Shown here piece by piece: positions 1-57,501 of a DNA stretch of 64,000 nucleotides. Below the pieces are notes generated by a model. The model saw nothing but the letters and a program-made list of their open reading frames with translations, was not told the DNA's origin and searched no databases. The stretch is from Escherichia coli (GTDB taxonomy: Bacteria; Pseudomonadota; Gammaproteobacteria; Enterobacterales; Enterobacteriaceae): the NCBI RefSeq assembly GCF_051903065.1, contig NZ_CP178438.1. One strand, given 5' to 3'. Position 1 is the first letter of the stretch; each line of letters starts with the position of its first letter. Position numbers and translations under genes: made by a program.

Positions 1-822
1 ATCGTTACTGAAGAAGCCAACAGCAACACTGAAGAAGGCCTCAATCAACTGGCGACCAACTATATTGCTGCGGTTGGCGGCACTGACAACCTGAAAGCAA
101 TTGACGCCTGTATCACCCGTCTGCGCCTTACCGTGGCTGACTCTGCCCGCGTTAACGATACGATGTGTAAACGTCTGGGTGCTTCTGGTGTAGTAAAACT
201 GAACAAACAGACTATTCAGGTGATTGTTGGCGCGAAAGCAGAATCCATCGGCGATGCGATGAAGAAAGTCGTTGCCCGTGGCCCGGTAGCAGCTGCCTCT
301 GCTGAAGCAACTCCGGCAACTGCCGCTCCTGTAGCAAAACCGCAGGCTGTACCAAACGCGGTATCTATCGCGGAGCTGGTATCGCCGATTACCGGTGATG
401 TCGTGGCACTGGATCAGGTTCCTGACGAAGCATTCGCCAGCAAAGCGGTGGGTGACGGTGTGGCGGTGAAACCGACAGATAAAATCGTCGTATCACCAGC
501 CGCAGGGACAATCGTGAAAATCTTCAACACCAACCACGCGTTCTGCCTGGAAACCGAAAAAGGCGCGGAGATTGTCGTCCACATGGGTATCGACACCGTA
601 GCGCTGGAAGGTAAAGGCTTTAAACGTCTGGTGGAAGAGGGCGCGCAGGTAAGCGCAGGGCAACCGATTCTGGAAATGGATCTGGATTACCTGAACGCTA
701 ACGCCCGTTCGATGATTAGCCCGGTGGTTTGCAGCAATATCGATGATTTCAGTGGCTTGATCATTAAAGCTCAGGGCCATGTTGTGGCGGGTCAAACACC
801 GCTGTATGAAATCAAAAAGTAA
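1..822 (+). CDS. nagE: PTS N-acetylglucosamine-specific EIICBA component, 3' portion (5' end upstream of window)
   Basis: Frame 1 is open from base 1 to the stop at 820-822; translation contains the EIIB-type motif DACITRLRL and an EIIA-like C-terminal domain; glnS lies immediately downstream as in E. coli. Confidence 0.85.
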   Translation: MVTEEANSNTEEGLNQLATNYIAAVGGTDNLKAIDACITRLRLTVADSARVNDTMCKRLGASGVVKLNKQTIQVIVGAKAESIGDAMKKVVARGPVAAASAEATPATAAPVAKPQAVPNAVSIAELVSPITGDVVALDQVPDEAFASKAVGDGVAVKPTDKIVVSPAAGTIVKIFNTNHAFCLETEKGAEIVVHMGIDTVALEGKGFKRLVEEGAQVSAGQPILEMDLDYLNANARSMISPVVCSNIDDFSGLIIKAQGHVVAGQTPLYEIKK

Positions 823-3267: not shown

Positions 3268-4674
3268 ATGCGTACGTTTAGTGGCAAACGTAGTACGCTG
3301 GCGCTGGCTATCGCCGGTGTTACAGCAATGTCGGGCTTTATGGCAATGCCGGAGGCTCGCGCCGAAGGATTCATCGACGATTCAACCTTAACCGGCGGTA
3401 TCTATTACTGGCAGCGTGAACGCGACCGTAAAGATGTTACCGACGGCGACAAATACAAAACCAACCTTTCTCACTCCACCTGGAATGCCAACCTCGATTT
3501 TCAGTCTGGTTATGCTGCTGATATGTTCGGCCTTGATATTGCCGCGTTTACGGCGATTGAAATGGCGGAAAACGGCGACAGCTCTCACCCGAACGAAATC
3601 GCGTTTTCAAAAAGTAATAAAGCCTATGACGAAGACTGGTCCGGCGATAAAAGCGGTATAAGCCTGTATAAAGCAGCGGCCAAATTTAAATACGGTCCGG
3701 TTTGGGCGAGGGCAGGTTATATTCAGCCAACCGGTCAGACGCTGTTAGCGCCGCACTGGAGCTTTATGCCAGGTACCTATCAGGGTGCGGAAGCCGGAGC
3801 GAATTTTGATTACGGCGATGCCGGTGCGTTGAGTTTCTCCTACATGTGGACCAACGAATACAAAGCACCGTGGCATCTGGAAATGGATGAGTTTTATCAG
3901 AACGATAAAACTACCAAAGTTGATTATCTGCACTCCATCGGTGCGAAATACGACTTCAAAAATAACTTCGTACTGGAAGCGGCATTTGGTCAGGCGGAAG
4001 GGTATATCGATCAATACTTTGCCAAAGCCAGCTACAAATTTGATATCGCCGGTAGCCCGTTAACCACCAGCTACCAGTTCTACGGTACGCGCGATAAAGT
4101 TGACGATCGCAGCGTCAACGATCTTTATGACGGCACCGCCTGGCTGCAAGCGTTGACCTTTGGTTACCGGGCGGCTGACGTAGTGGATTTGCGCCTCGAA
4201 GGCACCTGGGTTAAAGCTGACGGTCAGCAGGGATACTTCCTGCAACGTATGACTCCAACCTACGCTTCCTCGAACGGTCGCCTGGATATCTGGTGGGATA
4301 ACCGTTCTGACTTCAACGCCAACGGCGAAAAAGCGGTCTTCTTCGGTGCGATGTATGACCTGAAAAACTGGAATCTTCCAGGCTTCGCCATCGGCGCTTC
4401 CTACGTTTACGCATGGGATGCTAAACCTGCGACCTGGCAGAGCAATCCGGATGCGTACTACGACAAAAACCGGACTATTGAAGAGTCTGCCTACAGCCTG
4501 GATGCGGTCTACACCATTCAGGACGGTCGCGCCAAAGGCACGATGTTCAAACTGCACTTCACCGAATACGACAACCACTCCGACATCCCAAGCTGGGGCG
4601 GCGGTTACGGTAACATCTTCCAGGATGAGCGTGACGTGAAATTTATGGTAATCGCACCATTCACCATCTTCTGA
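3268..4674 (+). CDS. chiP: chitooligosaccharide-specific outer membrane porin
   Basis: 468-aa ORF with N-terminal signal peptide and C-terminal aromatic residue (…PFTIF) typical of beta-barrel porins; size and position (glnS-chiP-chiQ-fur) match E. coli ybfM/chiP. Confidence 0.85.
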
Positions 4675-7920: not shown

Positions 7921-8466
7921 ATGAAAACGATTGAAGTTGATGATGAACTCTACAGCTATATTGCCAGCCACACTAAGCATATCGGCGAGAGCGCATCCGA
8001 CATTTTACGGCGTATGTTGAAATTTTCCGCCGCATCACAGCCTGCTGCTCCGGTGACGAAAGAGGTTCGCGTTGCGTCACCTGCTATCGTCGAAGCGAAG
8101 CCGGTCAAAACGATTAAAGACAAGGTTCGCGCAATGCGTGAACTTCTGCTTTCGGATGAATACGCAGAGCAAAAGCGAGCGGTCAATCGCTTTATGCTGC
8201 TGTTGTCTACACTATATTCTCTTGACGCCCAGGCGTTTGCCGAAGCAACGGAATCGTTGCACGGTCGTACACGCGTTTACTTTGCGGCAGATGAACAAAC
8301 GCTGCTGAAAAATGGTAATCAGACCAAGCCGAAACATGTGCCAGGCACGCCGTATTGGGTGATCACCAACACCAACACCGGCCGTAAATGCAGCATGATC
8401 GAACACATCATGCAGTCGATGCAATTCCCGGCGGAATTGATTGAGAAGGTTTGCGGAACTATCTAA
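7921..8466 (+). CDS. seqA: replication initiation negative regulator SeqA
   Basis: 181-aa product from internal ATG at 7921 ([33 protein letters not shown]...); the track ORF begins upstream at 7786. Confidence 0.9.
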
Positions 8467-8491: not shown

Positions 8492-10132
8492 ATGGCAATC
8501 CACAATCGTGCAGGCCAACCTGCACAACAGAGTGATTTGATTAACGTCGCCCAACTGACGGCGCAATATTATGTACTGAAACCAGAAGCAGGGAATGCGG
8601 AGCACGCGGTGAAATTCGGTACTTCCGGTCACCGTGGCAGTGCAGCGCGCCACAGCTTTAACGAGCCGCACATTCTGGCGATCGCTCAGGCAATTGCTGA
8701 AGAACGTGCGAAAAACGGCATCACTGGCCCTTGCTATGTGGGTAAAGATACTCACGCCCTGTCCGAACCTGCATTTATTTCCGTACTGGAAGTGCTGGCA
8801 GCGAACGGCGTAGATGTTATTGTGCAGGAAAACAATGGCTTCACCCCGACGCCTGCCGTTTCCAATGCCATCCTGGTTCACAATAAAAAAGGTGGCCCGC
8901 TGGCAGACGGTATCGTGATTACACCGTCCCATAACCCGCCGGAAGATGGTGGTATCAAGTACAATCCGCCAAATGGTGGCCCGGCAGATACCAACGTCAC
9001 TAAAGTGGTGGAAGACAGAGCCAACGCACTGATGGCCGATGGCCTGAAAGGCGTGAAGCGTATCTCCCTCGACGAAGCGATGGCATCCGGTCATGTGAAA
9101 GAGCAGGATCTGGTGCAGCCGTTTGTGGAAGGGCTGGCCGATATCGTTGATATGGCGGCGATTCAGAAAGCGGGCCTGACGCTTGGCGTTGATCCGCTGG
9201 GCGGTTCCGGTATCGAATACTGGAAGCGTATTGGCGAGTATTACAACCTCAACCTGACTATCGTTAACGATCAGGTCGATCAAACCTTCCGCTTTATGCA
9301 CCTTGATAAAGACGGCGCGATCCGTATGGACTGCTCCTCCGAGTGTGCGATGGCGGGCCTGCTGGCACTGCGTGATAAGTTCGATCTGGCGTTTGCTAAC
9401 GACCCGGATTATGACCGTCACGGTATCGTCACTCCGGCAGGTTTGATGAATCCGAACCACTACCTGGCGGTGGCAATCAACTACCTGTTCCAGCATCGTC
9501 CGCAGTGGGGCAAAGATGTTGCCGTTGGTAAAACGCTGGTTTCTTCTGCGATGATCGACCGTGTGGTCAATGACTTGGGTCGTAAGCTGGTAGAAGTCCC
9601 GGTAGGTTTCAAATGGTTTGTTGATGGTCTGTTCGACGGCAGCTTCGGCTTTGGCGGCGAAGAGAGCGCAGGGGCTTCCTTCCTGCGTTTCGACGGCACG
9701 CCGTGGTCCACCGACAAAGACGGCATCATCATGTGTCTGCTGGCGGCGGAAATCACCGCTGTCACCGGTAAGAACCCGCAGGAACACTACAACGAACTGG
9801 CAAAACGCTTTGGTGCGCCGAGCTACAACCGTTTGCAGGCAGCTGCGACTTCCGCACAAAAAGCGGCGCTGTCTAAGCTGTCTCCGGAAATGGTGAGCGC
9901 AAGCACCCTGGCAGGTGACCCGATCACCGCGCGCCTGACTGCTGCTCCGGGCAACGGTGCTTCTATTGGCGGTCTGAAAGTGATGACTGACAACGGCTGG
10001 TTCGCCGCGCGTCCGTCAGGCACGGAAGACGCATATAAGATCTACTGCGAAAGCTTCCTCGGTGAAGAACATCGCAAGCAGATTGAGAAAGAAGCGGTTG
10101 AGATTGTTAGCGAAGTTCTGAAAAACGCGTAA
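8492..10132 (+). CDS. pgm: phosphoglucomutase
   Basis: Product starting [20 protein letters not shown] with phosphohexomutase active-site motif TPSHNP; start taken at the internal Met of track ORF 8441-10132. Confidence 0.9.
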
Positions 10133-18383: not shown

Positions 18384-18590
18384 ATGGAACTCTACAGAGA
18401 ATATCCTGCATGGCTTATCTTTTTACGCCGTACTTATGCGGTTGCAGCGGGCGTTCTGGCGCTGCCTTTCATGCTTTTCTGGAAAGACCGCGCCCGCTTT
18501 TACAGCTACCTGCATCGCGTCTGGTCGAAAACCAGCGATAAACCGGTGTGGATGGATCAGGCCGAAAAGGCAACTGGTGATTTTTACTGA
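18384..18590 (+). CDS. ybfA: small inner-membrane protein YbfA (DUF2517)
   Basis: 68-aa [38 protein letters not shown]...; position between kdp and rhs as in E. coli. Confidence 0.8.
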
Positions 18591-18832: not shown

Positions 18833-21800
18833 ATGAGCGGAAAACCGGCGGCGCGTCAGGGCGACATGACGCAGTATGGCGGTAGCATTGTCCAGGGTTC
18901 AGCCGGGGTGCGCATCGGTGCCCCCACCGGCGTGGCCTGTTCGGTGTGCCCCGGCGGGGTGACGTCCGGCCATCCGGTCAATCCGCTGCTGGGTGCAAAG
19001 GTCCTTCCCGCTGAAACCGACATCGCCCTGCCCGCCCCGCTGCCGTTCATTCTCTCCCGCACCTACAGCAGTTACCGGACAAAAACGCCCGCGCCGGTGG
19101 GGAGCCTCGGCCCCGGCTGGAAAATGCCTGCGGATATCCGCTTACAGCTGCGCGATAACACACTGATACTCAGTGATAACGGCGGCAGAAGCCTGTATTT
19201 TGAGCACCTGTTTCCCGGTGAGGACGGTTACAGCCGCAGCGAGTCACTGTGGCTGGTGCGCGGCGGCGTGGCGAAACTGGATGAAGGTCACCGGCTGGCC
19301 GCACTCTGGCAGGCGCTGCCGGAAGAGCTTCGCCTGAGTCCGCATCGTTATCTGGCGACAAACAGTCCGCAGGGGCCGTGGTGGCTGCTCGGCTGGTGTG
19401 AGCGGGTGCCGGAAGCGGATGAGTTGCTGCCTGCGCCGCTGCCGCCGTACCGGGTACTGACCGGGCTGGTGGACCGCTTCGGGCGCACACAGACGTTCCA
19501 CCGCGAAGCCGCCGGTGAATTCAGCGGCGAAATCACCGGCGTGACGGATGGTGCCGGGCGTCACTTCCGGCTGGTACTGACCACGCAGGCGCAGCGGGCA
19601 GAAGAAGCCCGGCAGCAGGCCTCTTCCGGCGGGACGGAACCGTCCGCTTTTCCTGATACCCTGCCGGGTTACACCGAATATGGCCGGGACAACGGCATCC
19701 GTCTGTCTGCCGTGTGGCTGACGCACGACCCGGAATACCCGGACAACCTGCCAGCCGCGCCGCTGGTGCGCTATGGCTGGACGCCACGCGGCGAACTGGC
19801 GGCAGTGTATGACCGCAGCAATACACAGGTGCGCAGCTTTACTTACGATGATAAATACCGGGGCCGGATGGTGGCGCACCGTCACACGGGCCGACCGGAA
19901 ATCCGTTACCGTTACGACAGCGACGGGCGGGTGACAGAGCAGCTTAACCCGGCGGGCTTAAGCTACACCTACTGTTATGAGCAAAACCGCATCACCATCA
20001 CCGACAGCCTGGACCGCCGTGAAGTGCTGCACACGCAGGGCGAAGGCGGGCTGAAGCGGGTGGTGAAAAAGGAACACGCGGACGGCAGCGTCACGCAGAG
20101 TCAGTTTGATGCGGTGGGCAGGCTTAAGGCACAGACGGATGCCGCAGGCCGGACAACAGAATACAGCCCGGATGTGGTGACGGGACTCATCACGCGCATC
20201 ACCACACCGGATGGCAGGGCATCGGCATTTTACTATAACCACCACAGCCAGTTAACGTCAGCCACCGGGCCTGACGGGCTGGAATTGCGCCGGGAATATG
20301 ATGAATCCGGCCGTCTGATTCAGGAAACCGCCCCTGACGGCGATATCACCCGCTACCGTTATGATAATCCACACAGTGACTTACCCTGCGCAACGGACGA
20401 TGCCACCGGCAGCCGGAAAACCATGACGTGGAGCCGTTACGGCCAGTTGCTGAGCTTCACCGACTGTTCCGGTTATGTAACCCGTTATGACCATGACCGT
20501 TTCGGGCAGATGACGGCGGTGCACCGCGAGGAAGGGCTGAGTCAGTACCGCGCATACGACAGCCGTGGACAGTTAATTGCGGTGAAAGACATGCAGGGCC
20601 ATGAAATGCGGTATGAATACAACGCCGCCGGTGACCTGACCGCCGTCATTGCTCCGGACGGCAGCAGAAACGGGACACAGTACGATGCGTGGGGAAAGGC
20701 CATCCGTACCACGCAGGGCGGGCTGACGCGCAGTATGGAATACGATGCTGCCGGACGGGTCATCCGCCTGACCAGTGAAAACGGCAGCCATACCACCTTC
20801 CGTTACGATGTACTCGACCGGCTGATACAGGAAACCGGCTTTGACGGCCGCACACAGCGTTATCACCACGACCTGACCGGCAAACTTATCCGCAGCGAGG
20901 ATGAGGGGCTGGTCACCCACTGGCACTATGACGAAGCAGACCGCCTCACGCACCGCACCGTGAATGGCGAAACCGCAGAGCGGTGGCAGTATGACGAACG
21001 CGGCTGGCTGACAGACATCAGCCATATCAGCGAAGGGCACCGGGTGACGGTGCATTACGGGTATGATGAGAAAGGCCGGCTGACCGGTGAGCGTCAGACG
21101 GTGCATCACCCGCAGACGGAAGCACTGCTCTGGCAGCATGAGACCAGACACGCTTACAACGCGCAGGGACTGGCGAACCGCTGTATACCGGACAGCCTGC
21201 CCGCCGTGGAATGGCTGACCTACGGCAGCGGCTGGCTGTCAGGCATGAAGCTCGGCGACACACCGCTGGTGGATTTCACCCGCGACCGCCTGCACCGGGA
21301 AACGCTGCGCAGCTTCGGCCATTATGAACTCACCACCGCTTATACCCCTGCCGGGCAGTTACAGAGCCAGCACCTGAACAGCCTGCAGTATGACCGCGAT
21401 TACACCTGGAACGACAACGGCGAACTCATCCGCATCAGCAGCCCGCGCCATACCCGGAGTTACAGCTACAGCAACTCCGGCAGGCTGACCGGCGTTCACA
21501 CCACCACCTCAACTCTGGATATCCGCATCCCGTATGCCACGGACCCGGCAGGTAACCGCCTGCCCGACCCGGAGCTGCACCCGGACAGCACCCTCAGCAT
21601 GTGGCCGGATAACCGTATCGCCCGTGACGCGCACTATCTTTACCGGTATGACCGTCACGGCAGACTGACAGAGAAAACCGACCTCATCCCGGAAGGGGTT
21701 ATCCGCACGGATGATGAGCGCACCCACCGGTACCATTACGACAGTCAGCACCGGCTGGTGCACTACACGCGGACACAATATGCAGAGCCGCTGGTCGAAA

Positions 21801-23032
21801 GCCGCTATCTTTACGACCCGCTGGGCCGCAGGGTGGCAAAACGGGTATGGCGACGTGAACGGGACCTGACGGGCTGGATGTCGCTGTCACGGAAACCGCA
21901 AGTGACCTGGTACGGCTGGGATGGCGACCGCCTGACCACGATACAGAACGACAGAACCCGCATCCAGACGATTTATCAGCCGGGGAGCTTCACACCACTC
22001 ATCAGAGTTGAAACTGCCACCGGTGAACTGGCCAGAACGCAGCGCCGCAGCCTGGCGGATGCCCTTCAGCAGTCCGGCGGTGAAGACGGTGGCAGTGTGG
22101 TGTTCCCGCCGGTGCTGGTGCAGATGCTCGACCGGCTGGAAAGTGAAATCCTGGCTGACCGGGTGAGTGAGGAAAGTCGCCGCTGGCTGGCATCGTGCGG
22201 CCTGACGGTGGAGCAGATGCAAAACCAGATGGACCCGGTGTACACGCCGGCGCGAAAAATCCACCTGTACCACTGCGACCATCGCGGCCTGCCGCTGGCG
22301 CTTATCAGTGCGGAAGGGGCTACAGAATGGTGCGCAGAATACGATGAATGGGGCAACCTGCTGAATGAAGAGAACCCGCAACAGCTGCAGCAGCTCATCC
22401 GCCTGCCGGGTCAGCAGTATGATGAGGAGTCCGGCCTGTATTACAATCGCCACCGCTATTATGACCCGCTGCAGGGGAGGTATATCACTCAGGATCCGAT
22501 TGGGCTGAAGGGGGGATGGAATTTTTATCAGTATCCGTTGAATCCGGTTCAGTATATAGATTCAATGGGACTGGCATCAAAATATGGACACTTAAATAAT
22601 GGCGGATATGGAGCGAGACCCAACAAACCGCCTACGCCCGATCCAAGTAAATTGCCAGACATAGCGAAACAATTAAGACTGCCATATCCTATTGACCAGG
22701 CCAGTAGTGCGCCTAATGTTTTCAAAACATTCTTCAGAGCATTAAGCCCTTACGACTACACACTGTATTGCAGGAAGTGGGTAAAACCAAATCTGACTTG
22801 TACGCCACAGGATGATCCCCAGTATCCAGGGATGGATACAAAGACAGCAAGTGATTACCTGCCACAGACAAATTGGCCAACAACTCAATTACCACCAGGA
22901 TATACTTGTGCAGAACCCTATTTATTCCCAGACATTAATAAACCCGATGGGCCAGCAACAGCAGGGATAGATGATTTGGGTGAAATTTTAGCTAAAATGA
23001 AACAGAGAACATCGAGAGGAATAAGAAAATGA
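18833..23032 (+). CDS. rhsC: Rhs-family polymorphic toxin (rhsC-type): GC-rich YD-repeat core plus AT-rich variable C-terminal toxin domain
   Basis: 1399-aa ORF with many YD/RHS repeats (…YRYD…GR…), a core-end motif …[39 protein letters not shown], and a compositionally distinct tail; sits between ybfA and ybgA. Confidence 0.9.
22576..23032 (+). other. variable C-terminal toxin domain of the Rhs protein (about 150 aa, no recognisable catalytic motif)
   Basis: Begins just after the DPIGL…DSMGL core boundary; codon usage switches abruptly from GC-rich to AT-rich; Pro/Cys-containing sequence with no HNH/nuclease/deaminase motif that I can recognise. Confidence 0.6.
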
Positions 23033-23598
23033 AAAGAGTTTTGTTCTTTTTGCTGATGATATTTGTTAGTTTTGGTGTTATAGCTGATTGCGAAATACAA
23101 GCTAAAGATCATGATTGTTTTACTATTTTCGCTAAGGGTACTATTTTTTCCGCGTTTCCTGTCTTAAATAATAAAGCCATGTGGAAATGGTATCAGAATG
23201 AGGACATCGGTGAGTATTATTGGCAAACAGAACTGGGTACATGTAAAAATAATAAATTCACACCAAACGGGGCGAGACTCTTAATTCGCGTCGGGTCACT
23301 ACGCCTTAATGAAAATCATGCCATCAAAGGAACGTTGCAGGAGTTGATAAATACAGCAGAAAAAACGGCGTTTCTCGGCGATCGGTTTAGAAGTTATATA
23401 AGAGCGGGTATCTATCAAAAAAAGAGCAGTGATCCAGCTCAGTTGTTGGCAGTCCTTGATAATTCAATCATGGTTAAATATTTTAAAGATGAGAAGCCAA
23501 CTTATGCTCGAATGACAGCACATCTCCCGAACAAAGATGAGTCTTACGAATGTTTAACAAAAATACAGCATGAACTGCTTCGTAGTGAAGAAAAATAA
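23029..23598 (+). CDS. putative cognate Rhs immunity protein with N-terminal signal-peptide-like segment
   Basis: 189-aa AT-rich ORF whose ATG overlaps the rhs stop (ATGA at 23029-23032); N-terminus [19 protein letters not shown] looks like a Sec signal peptide; same size as K-12 ybfC as I recall it, but identity not verified. Confidence 0.6.
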
Positions 23599-23619
23599 AA
23601 CATCTTCCTGAGAGAATAA

Positions 23620-23757
23620 ATTAACCATTCGGGAAAACATGTTCTTAATGGATATCCAGGTACACCAGAAGGTCGATTTGGAAAAATGGATTCCGATGGT
23701 AAGAATATCATATATTCTGAATGTAATGTTTTACCCACAACTTTTGAGATTCGATAG
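23620..23757 (+). pseudogene. orphan toxin C-terminal remnant (no start codon)
   Basis: Open frame without an initiator encoding …NHSGKHVLNGYPGTPEGRFGKMDSDGKNIIYSECNVLPTTFEIR, ending 9 nt before the next small ORF; this arrangement is typical of orphan toxin-tip/immunity cassettes downstream of rhs genes. Confidence 0.4.
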
Positions 23758-23766
23758 GTGTAGAAC

Positions 23767-24069
23767 ATGAGAAACTCACTAATATTACTTATTATGATAT
23801 TGTTTACAATATCACACTCAGTATTTGGAAAAGAAAATCCAGTGGAAATTTTAGTAAATAGTTGTGAAATGGCTTTGGAATTATCATATGTTTACATTAA
23901 ATATGTATACGGGAAAGAAAAAGCAGAATTTCAGAAACCATATAGTATTACAGATGACAATAATTGTTGGAAAATCGAGGGAAAACAACCGAAGACTTTA
24001 GGAGGAAATTTTACAATACTAATAGCGAAAAAAGATGGGCAAGTGTTGAATGTAATACACACGAAATAA
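23767..24069 (+). CDS. putative orphan immunity protein (small, signal-peptide-bearing)
   Basis: 100-aa AT-rich ORF, N-terminus MRNSLILLIMILFTISHSVFG is signal-peptide-like; directly follows the toxin remnant. Confidence 0.45.
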   Translation: MRNSLILLIMILFTISHSVFGKENPVEILVNSCEMALELSYVYIKYVYGKEKAEFQKPYSITDDNNCWKIEGKQPKTLGGNFTILIAKKDGQVLNVIHTK

Positions 24070-24489
24070 TCCACTGTACAGTCGATTCAAATATTTTACC
24101 AAGGTGTGTTTCGTAACAATTTTGTGTACAATATGACTCTACATATCGACGAAAAAACCACTTGATTTGACAGGAACACATTCAAAAAAATTTCTTTTTT
24201 TCATTTCAGGAGCGATTTTCATCTGTTACTTGAAGTATCTGTGAGATTAAGTGACTCCCCCTAACGTCGTACTAAATAGTAATTACTGGCCATACCGGGA
24301 GCAGTATTCGGCGCTCCCCACATGCAGCAGAATAACCGCATCAGCCAGGGAAAGATCATCAAAAGTTCACTTTTTGCACTAAATAATTCGCATTTTATGT
24401 TTAAAAATTGAGATATTCCTTATTACCTAAAGCTGTTTTTTATTGCTTATACATGATCAAATACTCCTTACATAATTAAGGAGAACAAA

Positions 24490-25625
24490 ATGGAACTTAA
24501 AAAATTGATGGAACATATTTCTATTATCCCTGATTACAGACAAGCCTGGAAAGTGGAGCATAAATTATCGGATATTCTACTGTTGACTATTTGTGCCGTT
24601 ATTTCTGGTGCAGAAGGCTGGGAAGATATAGAGGATTTTGGGGGAACACATCTCGATTTTTTGAAGCAATATGGTGATTTTGAAAATGGTATTCCTGTCC
24701 ACGATACCATTGCCAGAGTTGTATCCTGTATCAGTCCTGCAAAATTTCACGAGTGCTTTATTAACTGGATGCGTGACTGCCATTCTTCAAATGATAAAGA
24801 CGTCATTGCAATTGATGGAAAAACACTCCGGCATTCTTATGACAAGAGTCGCCGCAGGGGAGCGATTCATGTCATTAGTGCGTTCTCAACAATGCACAGT
24901 CTGGTCATCGGACAGATCAAGACAGATGAGAAATCTAATGAGATCACAGCTATCCCTGAACTTCTTAACATGCTGGATATTAAAGGAAAAATTATCACAA
25001 CTGATGCGATTGGTTGCCAGAAAGATATCGCAGAGAAGATACAAAAACAGGGCGGTGATTATTTATTCGCTGTAAAAGGAAATCAGGGGCGGCTTAATAA
25101 AGCCTTTGAGGAAAAATTTCCACTGAAAGAATTAAATAATCCAGAGCATGACAGTTACGCAATGAGTGAAAGAGTCACGGCAGAGAAGAGATCCGTCTTC
25201 ATAATGTTTGCGATGTCCCTGATGAACTTATTGATTTCACGTTTGAATGGAAAGGGCTGAAGAAATTATGCGTGGCAGTCTCCTTTCGGTCCATAATAGC
25301 AGAACAAAAGAAAGAGCCAGAAATGACGGTCAGATATTATATCAGTTCTGCTGATTTAACCGCAGAGAAGTTCGCCACAGCAATCCGAAACCACTGGCAC
25401 GTGGAGAATAAGCTGCACTGGCGTCTGGACGTGGTAATGAATGAAGACGACTGCAAAATAAGAAGAGGAAATGCAGCAGAATTATTTTCAGGGATACGGC
25501 ACATTGCTATTAATATTTTGACGAATGATAAGGTATTCAAGGCAGGGTTAAGACGTAAGATGCGAAAAGCAGCCATGGACAGAAACTATCTGGCGTCAGT
25601 CCTTGCGGGGAGCGGGCTTTCGTAA
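24490..25625 (+). pseudogene. ISAs1-family (H-repeat-associated) transposase, disrupted by a frameshift between 25260 and 25272
   Basis: Two adjacent ORFs (24490-25260, 256 aa, frame 1; 25272-25625, 117 aa, frame 3) that together total about 378 aa, the size of an H-repeat/ISAs1 transposase (N-terminus [51 protein letters not shown]); similar to K-12 ybfD/ybfL as I recall them. Confidence 0.75.
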
Positions 25626-50081: not shown

Positions 50082-51248
50082 ATGAACTTACATGAATATC
50101 AGGCAAAACAACTGTTTGCCCGCTATGGCTTACCAGCACCGGTGGGTTATGCCTGTACTACTCCGCGCGAAGCAGAAGAAGCCGCTTCAAAAATCGGTGC
50201 CGGTCCGTGGGTAGTGAAATGTCAGGTTCACGCTGGTGGCCGCGGTAAAGCGGGCGGTGTGAAAGTTGTAAACAGCAAAGAAGACATCCGTGCTTTTGCA
50301 GAAAACTGGCTGGGCAAGCGTCTGGTAACGTATCAAACAGATGCCAATGGCCAACCGGTTAACCAGATTCTGGTTGAAGCAGCGACCGATATCGCTAAAG
50401 AGCTGTATCTCGGTGCCGTTGTAGACCGTAGTTCCCGTCGCGTGGTCTTTATGGCCTCCACCGAAGGCGGCGTGGAAATCGAAAAAGTGGCGGAAGAAAC
50501 TCCGCACCTGATCCATAAAGTTGCGCTTGATCCGCTGACTGGCCCGATGCCGTATCAAGGACGCGAGCTGGCGTTCAAACTGGGTCTGGAAGGTAAACTG
50601 GTTCAGCAGTTCACCAAAATCTTCATGGGCCTGGCGACCATTTTCCTGGAGCGCGACCTGGCGTTGATCGAAATCAACCCGCTGGTCATCACCAAACAGG
50701 GCGATCTGATTTGCCTCGACGGCAAACTGGGCGCTGATGGCAACGCCCTGTTCCGCCAGCCTGATCTGCGCGAAATGCGTGACCAGTCGCAGGAAGATCC
50801 GCGTGAAGCACAGGCTGCACAGTGGGAACTGAACTACGTTGCGCTGGACGGTAACATCGGTTGTATGGTTAACGGCGCAGGTCTGGCGATGGGTACGATG
50901 GACATCGTTAAACTGCACGGCGGCGAACCAGCTAACTTCCTTGACGTTGGCGGCGGCGCAACCAAAGAACGTGTAACCGAAGCGTTCAAAATCATTCTCT
51001 CTGACGACAAAGTGAAAGCCGTTCTGGTTAACATCTTCGGCGGTATCGTTCGTTGCGACCTGATCGCTGACGGTATCATCGGCGCGGTAGCGGAAGTGGG
51101 TGTTAACGTACCGGTCGTGGTACGTCTGGAAGGTAACAACGCCGAACTCGGCGCGAAGAAACTGGCTGACAGCGGCCTGAATATTATTGCAGCAAAAGGT
51201 CTGACGGATGCAGCTCAGCAGGTTGTTGCCGCAGTGGAGGGGAAATAA
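50082..51248 (+). CDS. sucC: succinyl-CoA synthetase beta subunit
   Basis: 388-aa [21 protein letters not shown]… (ATP-grasp). Confidence 0.95.
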
Positions 51249-52117
51249 TGTCCATTTTAATTGATAAAAACACCAAGGTTATCTGCCAGGGCTTTACCGG
51301 TAGCCAGGGGACTTTCCACTCAGAACAGGCCATTGCATACGGCACTAAAATGGTTGGCGGCGTAACCCCAGGTAAAGGCGGTACTACCCACCTCGGCCTG
51401 CCGGTGTTCAACACCGTGCGTGAAGCTGTTGCTGCTACTGGCGCTACCGCTTCTGTTATCTACGTACCAGCACCGTTCTGCAAAGACTCCATTCTGGAAG
51501 CCATCGACGCAGGCATCAAACTGATTATCACCATCACTGAAGGCATCCCGACGCTGGATATGCTGACCGTGAAAGTGAAGCTGGATGAAGCAGGCGTTCG
51601 TATGATCGGCCCGAACTGCCCAGGCGTTATCACTCCGGGTGAATGCAAAATCGGTATCCAGCCTGGTCACATTCACAAACCGGGTAAAGTGGGTATCGTT
51701 TCCCGTTCCGGTACACTGACCTATGAAGCGGTTAAACAGACCACGGATTACGGTTTCGGTCAGTCGACCTGTGTCGGTATCGGCGGTGACCCGATCCCTG
51801 GCTCTAACTTTATCGACATTCTCGAAATGTTCGAAAAAGATCCGCAGACCGAAGCGATCGTGATGATCGGTGAGATCGGCGGTAGCGCTGAAGAAGAAGC
51901 GGCTGCGTACATCAAAGAGCACGTTACCAAGCCAGTTGTGGGCTACATCGCTGGTGTGACTGCGCCGAAAGGCAAACGTATGGGCCATGCGGGTGCCATC
52001 ATTGCCGGTGGGAAAGGGACTGCGGATGAGAAATTCGCTGCTCTGGAAGCCGCAGGCGTGAAAACCGTTCGCAGCCTGGCGGATATCGGTGAAGCACTGA
52101 AAACTGTTCTGAAATAA
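51248..52117 (+). CDS. sucD: succinyl-CoA synthetase alpha subunit
   Basis: 289-aa [31 protein letters not shown]… with the phosphohistidine region (…GHAGAII…). Confidence 0.95.
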
Positions 52118-52217
52118 ATATCTGTAATAAGAAATAGCCCTCGCCGCTTCCCTCTACAGGAATGGCGAAGGGCTGTCGGTTTCGACATGGTTGGCCATCG
52201 TATGATGGCCTTTTTTA
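52118..52217 (+). ncRNA. sdhX: probable SdhX (RybD) 3'-UTR-derived sRNA with its terminator
   Basis: About 100 nt after the sucD stop contains two hairpins, the second (ggccatcgtatgatggcc + TTTTTT, 52193-52216) being a canonical intrinsic terminator. Assignment as SdhX is from established knowledge of the sucD 3' UTR; I did not verify it by alignment. Confidence 0.45.
52193..52216 (+). terminator. sdhCDAB-sucABCD operon terminator
   Basis: Perfect 7-bp stem ggccatc/gatggcc with a 4-nt loop followed by TTTTTT. Confidence 0.8.
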
Positions 52218-52352
52218 TGTCTTAAACGGTTAACCACGGTCGAAATCTGACTGCAGGCTTGACTGCATGACCACAACCACTGTGGATTGCCGCGACCGGT
52301 GATGCTGCCAACTTACTGATTTAGTGTATGATGGTGTTTTTGAGGTGCTCCA

Positions 52353-52628
52353 GTGGCTTCTGTTTCTATCAGCTGTCCCTCCTGTTCAGCTACTGACGGG
52401 GTGGTGCGTAACGGCAAAAGCACCGCCGGACATCAGCGCTATCTCTGCTCTCACTGCCGTAAAACATGGCAACTGCAGTTCACTTACACCGCTTCTCAAC
52501 CCGGTACGCACCAGAAAATCATTGATATGGCCATGAATGGCGTTGGATGCCGGGCAACAGCCCGCATTATGGGCGTTGGCCTCAACACGATTTTACGTCA
52601 CTTAAAAAACTCAGGCCGCAGTCGGTAA
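52353..52628 (+). CDS. insA: IS1 InsA
   Basis: 91-aa [46 protein letters not shown]… (zinc-finger DNA-binding InsA). Confidence 0.95.
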
Positions 52629-53050
52629 CCTCGCGCATACAGCCGGGCAGTGACGTCATCGTCTGCGCGGAAATGGACGAACAGTGGGGCTATGTCGGGG
52701 CTAAATCGCGCCAGCGCTGGCTGTTTTACGCGTATGACAGGCTCCGGAAGACGGTTGTTGCGCACGTATTCGGTGAACGCACTATGGCGACGCTGGGGCG
52801 TCTTATGAGCCTGCTGTCACCCTTTGACGTGGTGATATGGATGACGGATGGCTGGCCGCTGTATGAATCCCGCCTGAAGGGAAAGCTGCACGTAATCAGC
52901 AAGCGATATACGCAGCGAATTGAGCGGCATAACCTGAATCTGAGGCAGCACCTGGCACGGCTGGGACGGAAGTCGCTGTCGTTCTCAAAATCGGTGGAGC
53001 TGCATGACAAAGTCATCGGGCATTATCTGAACATAAAACACTATCAATAA
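52547..53050 (+). CDS. insB: IS1 InsB' (expressed as InsAB' transposase by -1 frameshift)
   Basis: 167-aa ORF in the -1 frame relative to insA, overlapping its 3' end, as in IS1. Confidence 0.9.
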
Positions 53051-53560
53051 GTTGGAGTCATTACCGCCGCGACCGACCGCAAGCCACGAATAAGAACGAC
53101 GGCGAATTTCGAATCGTTACCTGATGCACTGGCTTCCCAGCGTTTGACCGTAGCGTTAAGTAAATCAACAAAAGCGATGTTCACCGCTTTTCGTCAAGTC
53201 GTGCCATTTGTCAGCCAGGATCGGGTCTTTACCCCGGATATTGCAGCATCGCAAAAATTCTTAGATGGATATGCTATAAATCAAAAATAAAATCTTTGTT
53301 GATTGTTTATCATAATATCCACAGATATGATAAATGATATCAATTTAATAATTTTCACTTAATGTGATTCCGGATAATTCGAAAGGCGCTGTGCTTTTCG
53401 GATTATTATTATCTGATTAAGATATTTGTCACGCCAGCCTTACTGGTTTATAAATGTCAATCATGATTCTTATAAATTATTTATTGCTGCTTTGGTTACC
53501 ATTACTTCGTAATAAGTAATGTATTTTTGATGGTTTAAACTATTTTTAAGGGACGGCATT

Positions 53561-54184
53561 ATGCGAGGGAAAATACCTAAAACGGAACTGCTGGTGACTT
53601 TTGAGGTCGTCGCACGTCATGAAAGTTATACCAGAGCGGCAGAGGAGTTAGCGTTAACCCAAAGTGCAGTATTCAGACAAGTAAGTGCGCTGGAGGAATT
53701 TTTACGTACTCCGTTATTTTCACACTCTAAAAAACGCATTTTTCTTAATGATACAGGGAAGTATTACCTGGGGATAGTAAAAGAAACATTAAATAAGCTG
53801 GAACGCGATACCAATACCATTATGACCTGGCAGCCTACGGTTCAGGTTATTGAACTTGCCGTTAATCCTACTTTTAGTACCCACTGGTTGATCCCAAATT
53901 TACATGAATTCACAAAGTTACATCCCGATATTATTGTTAATATTCATTCTTTAGCTAATAACGGCGATTTTCTTAATCGGGAGTACGATGCTGTCATTAT
54001 GCGCGAAAATTTTTGCGCGCCCTGGGCGGAAGTAGAATATCTCTTTGATGAGGAGATTTTGCCGGTATGCAGCGGCAGTTTGCTTGCAATGTCCGATCAA
54101 AAGCTGTCAGTGGCAGAACTGCTTACTGAGTTACCGCTTCTGCATCAAAGCACGGCTTTGTTGAATAAATCAGATTTCGGGTAA
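53561..54184 (+). pseudogene. LysR-family transcriptional regulator, 3'-truncated by the IS903-like element (native codons 1-197; the last codons are IS-derived)
   Basis: N-terminal LysR-type HTH (…LVTFEVVARHESYTRAAEELALTQSAVFRQVSALEEFL…); the reading frame runs into the IS903 inverted repeat at 54153 and terminates 32 nt inside it; AT-rich. Confidence 0.8.
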
Positions 54185-55210
54185 GTCTCCCCCGTAGCGG
54201 GTTGTGTTTTCAGGCAATACGCACGCTTTCAGGCATACCTGCTTTCGTCATTTTGTTCAGCGCTCGTACCAGGGCCATAGCCTCTGCAACCTGACCATCG
54301 TAGTCACGCAGTGTCAGTGAACCCCCGAACAGCTGTTTTACCCGGTACATCGCCGTTTCCGCTATCGAGCGACGGTTGTAATCTGTTGTCCATTTCCACC
54401 GCGCATTACTCCCGGTCATTCGCTGATTAGCCACTGCACGGTTACGGTCTGCATATTCACCGGGCCAGTAACCCGCACCTTTTCGGGGAGGGATAAGCGC
54501 GCTGATTTTCTTACGCCGCAGTTCATCGTGACATAGCCGGGTATCGTAAGCGCCATCGGCGGCGGCTGACCTGATTTTCCGGTGGGTTTGCCGGATTAAC
54601 CCGGGGAAGGCCTCTGAGTCCGTAACGTTGTTCAGCGACAGGTCAGCGCAGATGATTTCATGTGTTTTACTGTCAACGGCGAGATGCAGCTTACGCCAGA
54701 TACGGCGGCGTTCCTGGCCATGCTTTTTGACTTTCCACTCGCCTTCACCGAAGACCTTCAGCCCGGTGGAATCAATTACCAGGTGTGCGATTTCACCCCG
54801 GGTGGGCGTTTTGAAACTGACATTAACCGACTTTGCCCGCCTGCTGACACAGCTGTAATCCGGGCAGCGTAGCGGAACGTTCATCAGAGAAAAAATGGAA
54901 TCAATAAAGCCCTGCGCAGCGCGCAGGGTCAGCCTGAATACGCGTTTAATGACCAGCACAGTCGTGATGGCAAGGTCAGAATAGCGCTGAGGTCTGCCTC
55001 GTGAAGAAGGTGTTGCTGACTCATACCAGGCCTGAATAGCTTCATCATCCAGCCAGAAAGTTATGGAGCCACGGTTGATGAGGGCTTTATTGTAGGTGGG
55101 CCAGTTGGTGATTTTGAACTTTTGCTTTGCCACGGAACGGTCTGCGTTGTCGGGAAGATACGTGATCTGATCCTTCAACTCAGCAAAAGTTCGATTTATT
55201 CAACAAAGCC
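54153..55210 (-). mobile_element. IS903-like element (IS5 family, IS903 group), about 1058 bp, with 18-bp terminal inverted repeats and no flanking target duplication
   Basis: Ends ggctttgttgaataaatc (54153-54170) and gatttattcaacaaagcc (55193-55210); encodes the transposase below; flanking 9-mers tcaaagcac and atttatcag differ. Confidence 0.85.
54210..55178 (-). CDS. IS903-type transposase
   Basis: ORF …KQKFKITNWPTYNKALINRGSITFWLDDEAIQAWYESATPSSRGRPQRYSDLAITTVLVIKRVFRLTLRAAQGF… with DDE-type motifs (…VIDSTGLKV…, …AADGAYDTR…, …YNRRSIAETAMYRVKQLFG…); the track start is at 55178, and the true start may be an internal GTG. Confidence 0.85.
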   Translation of the reverse strand: MKDQITYLPDNADRSVAKQKFKITNWPTYNKALINRGSITFWLDDEAIQAWYESATPSSRGRPQRYSDLAITTVLVIKRVFRLTLRAAQGFIDSIFSLMNVPLRCPDYSCVSRRAKSVNVSFKTPTRGEIAHLVIDSTGLKVFGEGEWKVKKHGQERRRIWRKLHLAVDSKTHEIICADLSLNNVTDSEAFPGLIRQTHRKIRSAAADGAYDTRLCHDELRRKKISALIPPRKGAGYWPGEYADRNRAVANQRMTGSNARWKWTTDYNRRSIAETAMYRVKQLFGGSLTLRDYDGQVAEAMALVRALNKMTKAGMPESVRIA

Positions 55211-55581
55211 ATTTATCAGGCGAAAGTGGCCTCTGTTCACTCAGAAACAATCACTCCCGGTAAGTCATACCTGTTTCATCGATACATTTAAGTGATTATT
55301 ACTAATGAAACAATAACATAACGGGCTTACGGTCGGTGCTCATAAAGGCAACAATCAATTAACTTTGATAAAAATATGTTATGTAAAATAGCAACAAATT
55401 GGCTACTCTAATCAATTGGTATTATAAAAAGTTGATTGGGCGGTTCTGTTAAATAAAACACTGGTTTTTTATCTATACCTTTTCATTGTAATAATTGTGT
55501 TGCATAAATATTTCACAATAAATTAACAATAAAATCACCAATGATCTATGGTTTATACATAATTAACATATTTGGTTGGTT

Positions 55582-55595
55582 TTGATATAAATCAA
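55582..55595. promoter_or_regulatory. perfect FNR/CRP-family box TTGAT-ATAA-ATCAA in the cydAB upstream region
   Basis: Sequence ttgatataaatcaa matches the FNR consensus TTGAT-N4-ATCAA exactly, about 340 bp upstream of the cydA start; cydAB is known to be FNR/ArcA-regulated. Confidence 0.55.
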
Positions 55596-55932
55596 TTTTT
55601 AATTCTTGAAAAAAATCTGCAAAACACGATAAATTGTCGTAGATCAAATTGGTGAGATCGTGACAATTTCGCTATAAATTGATCACTGTCGAAAAATGCA
55701 AATTTGCTCAATAAAAACCTGTTTATTGTAAGGATTTTGCGGCGTAATATAATTACGGGATCAATTTGGTTTATTCATTAACATATTTGTAACTTTTTTA
55801 TCATTGTCTTTTCCTCTTTTGATGAAATGGCAACGATAGAGGCGAGCAAATAATTTTGTATTGGGGCATGCGTGTGACCCTTTCTAACGGGGTTCACTCT
55901 CGGAGTCTTCATGCGATGAGCAAGGAGTCATG

Positions 55933-57501
55933 ATGTTAGATATAGTCGAACTGTCGCGCTTACAGTTTGCCTTGACCGCGATGTACCACTTCCTTTTTGT
56001 GCCACTGACGCTCGGTATGGCGTTCCTGCTGGCCATTATGGAAACGGTCTACGTCCTTTCCGGCAAACAGATTTATAAAGATATGACCAAGTTCTGGGGC
56101 AAGTTGTTTGGTATTAACTTTGCTCTGGGTGTGGCTACCGGTCTGACCATGGAGTTCCAGTTCGGGACTAACTGGTCTTACTATTCCCACTATGTAGGGG
56201 ATATCTTCGGTGCGCCGCTGGCAATCGAAGGTCTGATGGCCTTCTTCCTCGAATCCACCTTTGTAGGTCTGTTCTTCTTCGGTTGGGATCGTCTGGGTAA
56301 AGTTCAGCATATGTGTGTCACCTGGCTGGTGGCGCTCGGTTCAAACCTGTCCGCACTGTGGATTCTGGTTGCGAACGGCTGGATGCAAAACCCAATCGCG
56401 TCCGATTTCAACTTTGAAACTATGCGTATGGAGATGGTGAGCTTCTCCGAGCTGGTGCTTAACCCGGTTGCTCAGGTGAAATTCGTTCACACTGTAGCGT
56501 CTGGTTATGTGACTGGCGCGATGTTCATCCTCGGTATCAGCGCATGGTATATGCTGAAAGGTCGTGACTTCGCCTTCGCTAAACGCTCCTTTGCTATCGC
56601 TGCCAGCTTCGGTATGGCTGCCGTTCTGTCTGTTATTGTTCTGGGTGATGAATCTGGTTACGAAATGGGCGACGTGCAGAAAACCAAACTGGCTGCTATT
56701 GAAGCTGAGTGGGAAACGCAACCTGCGCCTGCTGCCTTTACTCTGTTCGGCATTCCTGATCAGGAAGAGGAGACGAACAAATTTGCGATCCAGATCCCTT
56801 ACGCGCTGGGCATCATTGCAACGCGTTCCGTGGATACTCCAGTTATCGGCCTGAAAGAACTGATGGTGCAGCATGAAGAACGCATTCGTAACGGGATGAA
56901 GGCGTACTCTCTGCTCGAGCAACTGCGTTCTGGTTCTACCGACCAGGCGGTTCGTGACCAGTTCAATAGCATGAAGAAAGACCTCGGTTACGGTCTGCTG
57001 CTGAAACGCTATACGCCAAACGTGGCTGATGCGACTGAAGCTCAGATTCAACAGGCAACCAAAGACTCCATCCCGCGTGTAGCGCCGCTGTACTTTGCGT
57101 TCCGTATCATGGTGGCGTGTGGCTTCCTGCTGCTGGCAATCATCGCGCTCTCTTTCTGGAGTGTCATCCGCAACCGCATTGGCGAGAAAAAATGGCTCCT
57201 GCGCGCCGCGCTGTACGGTATTCCGCTGCCGTGGATTGCTGTAGAAGCGGGCTGGTTCGTGGCTGAATATGGCCGCCAACCGTGGGCTATCGGTGAAGTG
57301 CTGCCGACAGCTGTGGCGAACTCGTCACTGACCGCAGGCGATCTCATCTTCTCAATGGTGCTGATTTGCGGCCTGTATACCCTGTTCCTGGTGGCAGAAT
57401 TGTTCTTAATGTTCAAGTTTGCACGCCTCGGCCCAAGCAGCCTGAAAACCGGTCGCTATCACTTTGAGCAGTCTTCCACGACTACTCAGCCGGCACGCTA
57501 A
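55933..57501 (+). CDS. cydA: cytochrome bd-I ubiquinol oxidase subunit I
   Basis: Product [31 protein letters not shown]… (the track ORF has one additional upstream Met at 55930). Confidence 0.95.

Follow-up and report, generated by a model that had tools for sequence, protein, structure and literature searches.

An intact IS1A-type element inserted into relics of rtcB and hutH downstream of the Escherichia coli sdh-suc operon

The 64-kb window analyzed here, i.e. the whole 64,000-nucleotide stretch of DNA, contains a single copy of IS1, which lies between the end of the sdh-suc operon and a gene for a LysR-type regulator. Its position raises the question of what kind of DNA received the element, and whether a functional gene or the regulatory signals at the end of the operon were broken upon its arrival. 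The outermost bases of the element, read directly and by script, are GGTGATGCTGCC at one end and GGAGTCATTACC at the other, and the longer terminal reads are GGTGATGCTGCCAACTTACTGAT at its start and ATCAATAAGTTGGAGTCATTACC at its finish. The IS1 family is characterized by imperfect terminal inverted repeats of about 23-30 bp (GGTGATGCTGCCAACTTACTGAT / GGTAATGACTCCAACTTATTGAT), and here the arms 52297-52320 and 53043-53066 are 79% complementary. When a -1 shift is simulated at the A6C motif the InsAB' frame is open over 232 aa. The element is identical at 768 of 768 positions to the IS1 copies of REL606 (adjoining phoE) and MSB1_4I, and at 767 of 768 to the K-12 IS1A (NC_000913.3 19796-20563); all three share its length, inverted repeats, insA and insB' frames and A6C site. 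The REL606 and MSB1_4I copies are likewise flanked by 9-bp target duplications (CCGCGACAA and GCCTGCGCC, respectively), and they differ from the window element only in where they are inserted and in which 9-mer is duplicated. In NZ_AP045789.1 RefSeq labels the identical copy 'IS1-like element IS1A family transposase, programmed frameshift', and the described anatomy of IS1, including a target duplication of 8 or 9 bp, agrees with this element (PMC12428005). Judged by its length, ends, frames, duplication and empty site, it is an intact IS1 of the IS1A type. The coordinates of all features are collected in Table 1.

Abutting the two ends of the element are two copies of the 9-mer GCCGCGACC, which match at 9/9 positions and constitute a perfect duplication of the size typical of IS1. 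Given the composition of the window, the probability of such a match by chance at a fixed position is approximately 4.7e-6, and no further copy of the 9-mer is present on the plus strand of the 64 kb. A perfect 9-bp duplication at both ends had been reported in the first-pass annotation and is borne out on re-inspection; its right copy had been placed exactly, but its left copy one base too far to the right, as the span 52290-52298 given for it reads CCGCGACCG, and the actual left junction reads GGATTGCCGCGACC followed directly by GGTGATGCTGCC. A repeat search displays 10 nt, because the first base of IS1 and the base following the right copy are both G. Many unrelated IS1 copies seemed to have 8-12 nt of flank in common with this one, and a shared target motif was considered; the idea was dropped as chance, the resemblance in the three copies that were read being partial and out of register, with G+C-rich duplications (CCGCGACAA, GCCTGCGCC).

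The restored junction, obtained by removing the IS1 and one 9-mer in silico, was searched in 5,426 complete E. coli genomes. This check, proposed along with the original observation, recovered the junction as contiguous DNA with one copy of the 9-mer in 833 genomes. In ECNB21-M121 the match is 100% identical over 300 nt with the 9-mer present once, and beyond this the left flank of the IS1 differs from that genome by 2 mismatches over 16,151 bp, the right flank by none over 1,088 bp. The site is occupied in only 2 of the 5,426 genomes, namely those of isolates 23CRST027 and 23CRST031 from human faeces in Ecuador, for which a literature search returned nothing; the window differs from 23CRST027 by 2 mismatches and 1 gap over 46 kb, in addition to a 47-bp difference at the end of an IS903B element. 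Most other empty sites (O145, CNREC_004-43, W4) read GCCGCAACC. G is present at the variable position in both window copies of the 9-mer and already in the single copy of ECNB21-M121, and hence this SNP predates the IS1 insertion. As the flanks are contiguous around a single 9-mer in the empty-site genomes, no IS1-mediated deletion is indicated, and as they are separated from ECNB21-M121 by just 2 SNPs in about 17 kb the insertion is recent. Thus, the earlier reading of a simple transposition without IS1-mediated deletion holds, and the insertion was simple, recent and lineage-specific, with no flanking deletion. Cut-and-paste, a resolved cointegrate and recombinational import of an already occupied allele would look alike at this level, and any of them may have been the route.

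Table 1. Features at the IS1 insertion site (window coordinates unless given as nt of the restored spacer)
Feature	Coordinates	Strand	Remarks
sucD	51248..52117	+	last gene of sdhCDAB-sucABCD; 289-aa ORF; sucD in the identical NZ_AP045789.1 stretch
sucD 3' UTR = SdhX sRNA region	52118..52216	+	intact
SdhX seed	52181-52191	+	TTCGACATGGT
Terminator	52193-52210 (hairpin), 52211-52216 (T-run)	+	terminator scan
rtcB 3'-end relic	52222..52263	-	encodes VKPAVRFRPWLTV and stop in native rtcB frame
Internal rtcB relic, left part	52247..52297	-	DNA 88% to W4 9316-9372
Target-site duplication, left copy	52289-52297		GCCGCGACC; abuts IS1
IS1 (IS1A type)	52298-53065	+	exactly 768 bp; intact
IRL of IS1	52298-52320
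insA	52353-52628	+	Pfam Zn_ribbon_InsA 1e-21, HTH_Tnp_IS1 5e-31
insB' frame	52547-53050	+	Pfam DDE_Tnp_IS1 2e-78
A6C frameshift motif	52604-52610		AAAAAAC; within IS1
IRR of IS1	53043-53065
Remnant of the 61-codon ORF	53044..53184	-	GTG 53184, runs into IRR, 46 codons
Target-site duplication, right copy	53066-53074		GCCGCGACC; abuts IS1
Internal rtcB relic, right part	53075..53092	-	continues 52247-52297 across IS1
hutH relic (aromatic amino-acid lyase family)	53099..53158	+	W4 protein residues 378-397
hutH 3'-end relic	53150..53290	+	residues 511-556 and stop; underlies 48-aa ORF 53144-53290
LysR-type regulator gene of methylaspartate island	53561..54153	+	truncated; Pfam HTH_1, half of LysR_substrate
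IS903B (IS5 family)	54154..55210	-	1,057 bp, 18-bp inverted repeats, DDE_Tnp_1
Restored spacer, piece 1	nt 1-140		W4 9001-9140, 94%; SdhX, terminator, last rtcB codons
Restored spacer, piece 2	nt 143-199		W4 9316-9372, 88%; internal rtcB
Restored spacer, piece 3	nt 203-264		W4 18454-18515, 87%; inside hutH
Restored spacer, piece 4	nt 259-666		W4 18858-19265, 86%; hutH 3' end and spacer before LysR

On its upstream side the element starts at a distance of 81 nt from the sucD/SdhX terminator, in agreement with the first estimate of about 80 bp. The sucD stop codon occupies 52115-52117, and the SdhX seed, which was assigned together with its placement ahead of the terminator stem after PMC6393394, is untouched, as is the terminator itself. 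An Rfam scan of 51500-56000 at a permissive threshold returned nothing relevant, SdhX apparently being without a model. A promoter scan found no convincing hybrid promoter at the IS1 ends, the overall counts lying within the range of shuffled sequences.

The nature of the DNA that received the element emerges from comparison of different forms of the locus. In K-12-type genomes the match beyond sucD ends after 107 nt, at window 52224, and mngR comes next; the window belongs to a minority form in which sucD is followed by a LysR gene and a methylaspartate (glutamate fermentation) cluster, the latter having been described for O157:H7 (PMC4682846). The clue to the intervening DNA came from the loci of the LysR protein in other species. 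In Escherichia sp. MOD1-EC7003 a 474-aa gene of the RtcB family (Pfam RtcB, 9e-96) is convergent to sucD, and in the long form of E. coli W4 the order is sucD (rightward), rtcB (leftward), hutU, a permease gene, hutD, hutI, hutG, hutH (rightward), the LysR gene (rightward), then the island (leftward) and cydA (rightward). The full-length rtcB genes match Pfam RtcB (PF01139) with E 1e-95 and are convergent to sucD in W4 and 290 genomes. When aligned to W4, the restored spacer of 666 nt resolves into four pieces (Table 1), between which 175 bp, 9,081 bp and 342 bp are deleted. At the protein level tblastn comparisons showed that: 1) the 3'-end fragment VKPAVRFRPWLTV, with its stop, is identical at 10/12 positions to full-length RtcB-family proteins (E 4e-5 to 7e-5). 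2) The two parts of the internal rtcB relic on either side of the IS1 together encode YSWLAVGRGNPQWLWSCSQ, identical to RtcB at 17/23 positions (E 5e-11); this and the preceding fragment correspond to residues ~385-407 and 460-471, respectively, of the 474-aa RtcB. 3) The first hutH relic is identical at 18/20 positions (E 8e-8), with DNA 87% identical to W4 18454-18515. 4) The hutH 3'-end relic is identical at 39/46 positions (E 8e-24). The hutH counterpart in E. whittamii matches residues 426-491 of the ergothionase 6s7j (E 2e-9) and the C-terminus of Pfam Lyase_aromatic. The 9-bp target of IS1 lies inside the internal rtcB relic, at its G-R-G codons. The element therefore entered a multiply deleted pseudogene relic of a convergent rtcB-family gene, with a hutH relic just beyond it.

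Among the 5,426 complete genomes full-length rtcB is kept in 290, and the short form is found in 835, two of them with the IS1. The old rtcB-hut deletions, amounting to about 9.6 kb, are common to all short-form genomes; they must hence long predate the IS1 and be unrelated to it. This modifies the first-pass annotation, in which the sucD 3' region was thought to have directly preceded the DNA leading into the LysR gene: such was the case in the immediate ancestor, but further back the two were kept apart by the rtcB-hut block of about 9.6 kb. Overall, the sucD-cydA locus takes at least three forms in the 5,426 genomes: 1) the K-12 type, with mngR abutting the terminator in most genomes; 2) the long form, with rtcB, the hut operon, the LysR gene and the methylaspartate island; and 3) the short form, with the rtcB and hutH relics, the LysR gene and the island. 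In the inspected mngR and rtcB forms the convergent gene ends right against the T-run of the sucD terminator or overlaps it. Longer and different rtcB-hutH remnants are present in E. whittamii (locus coordinates 2094-2593), which retains a 78-aa ORF for the HutH C-terminus, and in Escherichia sp. E1V33 (2283-2642), which suggests that the hut block decayed stepwise or independently in several Escherichia lineages. The LysR gene and the island likewise occur near sucD in Citrobacter, Salmonella and Klebsiella, where, bar about 10 nt before the LysR start, the intervening DNA shares no homology with the target region of E. coli.

On the downstream side the LysR gene is cut by IS903B after codon 197 of 301, and RefSeq has it as a pseudogene 'missing C-terminus'; three relatives, among them CNREC_004-43 and ECNB21-M121, carry the gene in full. 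The 9-bp target duplication expected of a simple IS903B insertion is absent, the two flanks reading TCAAAGCAC and ATTTATCAG, and the region upstream of cydA directly follows the element. In the locus of O145 RM12367-C1 these flanks map to positions 1301 and 13775, 12,473 bp apart, which implies that the whole methylaspartate cluster is gone: relative to this reference cobO, fumD, gltP, the DUF4387 gene, an atuA-like gene, mal, glmE, glmL, glmS and two hypothetical genes are missing. IS903B thus marks a 12,473-bp deletion of the island, an event separate from that of IS1. Its deletion junction, like the IS1, was found only in 23CRST027 and 23CRST031, and none of the 5,426 complete genomes has the IS1 insertion alone or the IS903B deletion alone; as both occur only in the same two genomes, either may have come first. 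ECNB21-M121, the nearest of the empty-site relatives, carries a 100% identical IS903B elsewhere, inside the atuA-like gene of an intact island and in the opposite orientation (locus 21963-23019). Derivation of the window IS903B from that copy through two adjacent deletions was considered and rejected as a misfit, as the element would not become inverted. In 23CRST027 (locus 9094-9140) the last 47 bp of the IS903B right end are repeated in tandem, whereas the window (counterpart 55164-55210) has them once; the extra copy could be what is left of another IS903B end or an artefact of assembly.

Other strains show further IS events at this locus. FDAARGOS_944 (locus 1574-2341) has an IS1-family element of 768 bp, about 92% identical, inside the SdhX seed. 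Like the window IS1 it lies downstream of sucD in the same orientation and has a 9-bp duplication (TCGACATGG), but it is situated about 107 bp further upstream and separates the SdhX seed and terminator from the sdh-suc transcript, whereas the window IS1 leaves SdhX intact. By its position the FDAARGOS_944 insertion probably abolishes normal SdhX production, and a phenotype is likely to be expected of it but not of the window IS1. In AHB10 (locus 3489-4256) an IS1B lies about 490 bp downstream of sucD without a target duplication, its left flank ending in GTGTGCTGGC and its right flank being the region upstream of cydA, and it represents an IS1-linked deletion of the entire variable region. 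The window IS903B and the AHB10 IS1B affect the same sucD-cydA variable locus and involve the same kinds of element; however, both lack a duplication and have non-contiguous flanks, which amounts to a deletion, in contrast to the duplication and contiguous flanks of the window IS1. With AHB10 adding the case of another strain, the sucD-cydA junction has been hit repeatedly by IS elements. Elsewhere in the window, at about 18833-25624, a gene for an RHS element core protein, ybfC and an NTF2-fold immunity gene are followed by a frameshifted transposase pseudogene of the ISAs1 family, a stretch known only from the annotation of the matching genome.

Two alternatives would give the insertion a more disruptive history. 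In one of these IS1 would have broken a real small gene, either a minus-strand ORF of 61 codons or an 84-aa 'hypothetical protein' on the plus strand. Once the junction is restored the minus-strand ORF does indeed stay open, starting with GTG 53184 and stopping at 52222-52224, and a few E. coli records list it as a hypothetical protein; its length had been given correctly in the first-pass annotation, with a start at about 53229 that is 45 nt off. Against its being a gene, it is represented by three tiny E. coli-only clusters (57-63 aa) among 5.8 billion and has no Pfam match; no AGGAG-like or other Shine-Dalgarno-like ribosome-binding site could be read upstream of GTG 53184, and large indels disrupt it in Escherichia sp. 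E1V33 and E. whittamii. Further, over its N-terminal third it is read antisense to the hutH relic, in its middle it passes through the rtcB relic out of frame, and the native rtcB frame is used by the last 12 codons alone. Being composed of such antisense and out-of-frame pieces, it can be open without being a gene, and is a spurious chance frame across the two relics, in keeping with its initial grading as weak. The plus-strand candidate, WP_001309348.1, is called by PGAP across the site in CNREC_004-43 (locus 8141-8395, equivalent to window 52259-52297 plus 53075-53290), but in all other inspected empty-site genomes PGAP leaves the site unannotated. In it hutH residues 378-397 and 511-556 are fused in frame behind an out-of-frame leader antisense to the rtcB relic, and a TGA at codon 4 closes the frame in the window lineage and O145; it is an annotation artefact of the pseudogene relic. 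Disruption of a genuine small gene is accordingly extremely improbable. The other alternative, to which we also attach hardly any credence, is that IS1 participated in the rearrangement that removed the island, as the end of an IS1-mediated deletion or in a composite with IS903B. The 12.5-kb deletion lies just 1.1 kb from the IS1, the two are confined to the same two genomes, and IS1-linked deletions do occur at the locus in other strains, such as AHB10; nevertheless, both flanks of the window IS1 are collinear with the empty site and its duplication is perfect, the end-points of the deletion coincide exactly with the ends of an IS903B that has no duplication, and the window has only the one copy of IS1.

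The remaining alternatives concern selection. IS1 insertions are able to activate or silence neighbouring genes (PMC12428005), and this one might have been selected for a regulatory effect, e.g. by blocking or altering transcription leaving sdh-suc or entering from the island; the repeated IS hits in different strains would be in accord with this. However, the terminator and SdhX remain intact upstream of the element, downstream, up to cydA, there is only the truncated LysR pseudogene and then IS903B, the IS1 ends show no evident hybrid promoter, and the occupied allele is limited to two near-identical isolates, making such selection very unlikely. Candidate side-effects may include a change in sdh-suc read-through or in the local H-NS or supercoiling context. 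A broader version, which we likewise consider very unlikely, is that the sucD-cydA region is a recurrent landing and decay hot-spot, in which IS1 and IS903 strip amino-acid-catabolic modules one after another, first the rtcB-hut block and then the methylaspartate island, the events seen in the window being selected in this human-gut lineage rather than neutral. Were this true, transcription or silencing originating in the decaying island might, for example, be held off from the sdh-suc/SdhX terminator region by the IS1. With SdhX and the terminator intact, and the downstream LysR gene dead through the separate IS903B-linked deletion, the insertion is in our view most likely a neutral marker.

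Taken together, these observations leave us highly confident that an intact IS1 of the IS1A type transposed recently into relic DNA, interrupting no functional gene and most likely serving as a neutral marker. In the proposed course of events, for which we infer the transposase chemistry from established knowledge of IS1, the InsAB' transposase, produced by -1 frameshifting at the A6C motif, would have bound both terminal inverted repeats in a recent ancestor of this lineage and moved an IS1A-type copy into its chromosome. The element would have been joined to target cuts staggered by 9 bp, with gap repair generating the two copies of GCCGCGACC, at a landing point in non-functional DNA, 81 nt beyond the terminator of sucD/SdhX. 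As such, this is IS1 transposition of the textbook kind; RefSeq already annotates the insertion in two genomes, and it is not novel. It does mark the clonal lineage of 23CRST027/23CRST031 cleanly (2/5,426 complete genomes). Beyond this, the annotation of the locus is settled: in short-form E. coli, what separates the sucD terminator from the LysR gene is a relic of rtcB and hutH, and neither WP_001309348.1 nor the 61-codon ORF should be treated as a gene.
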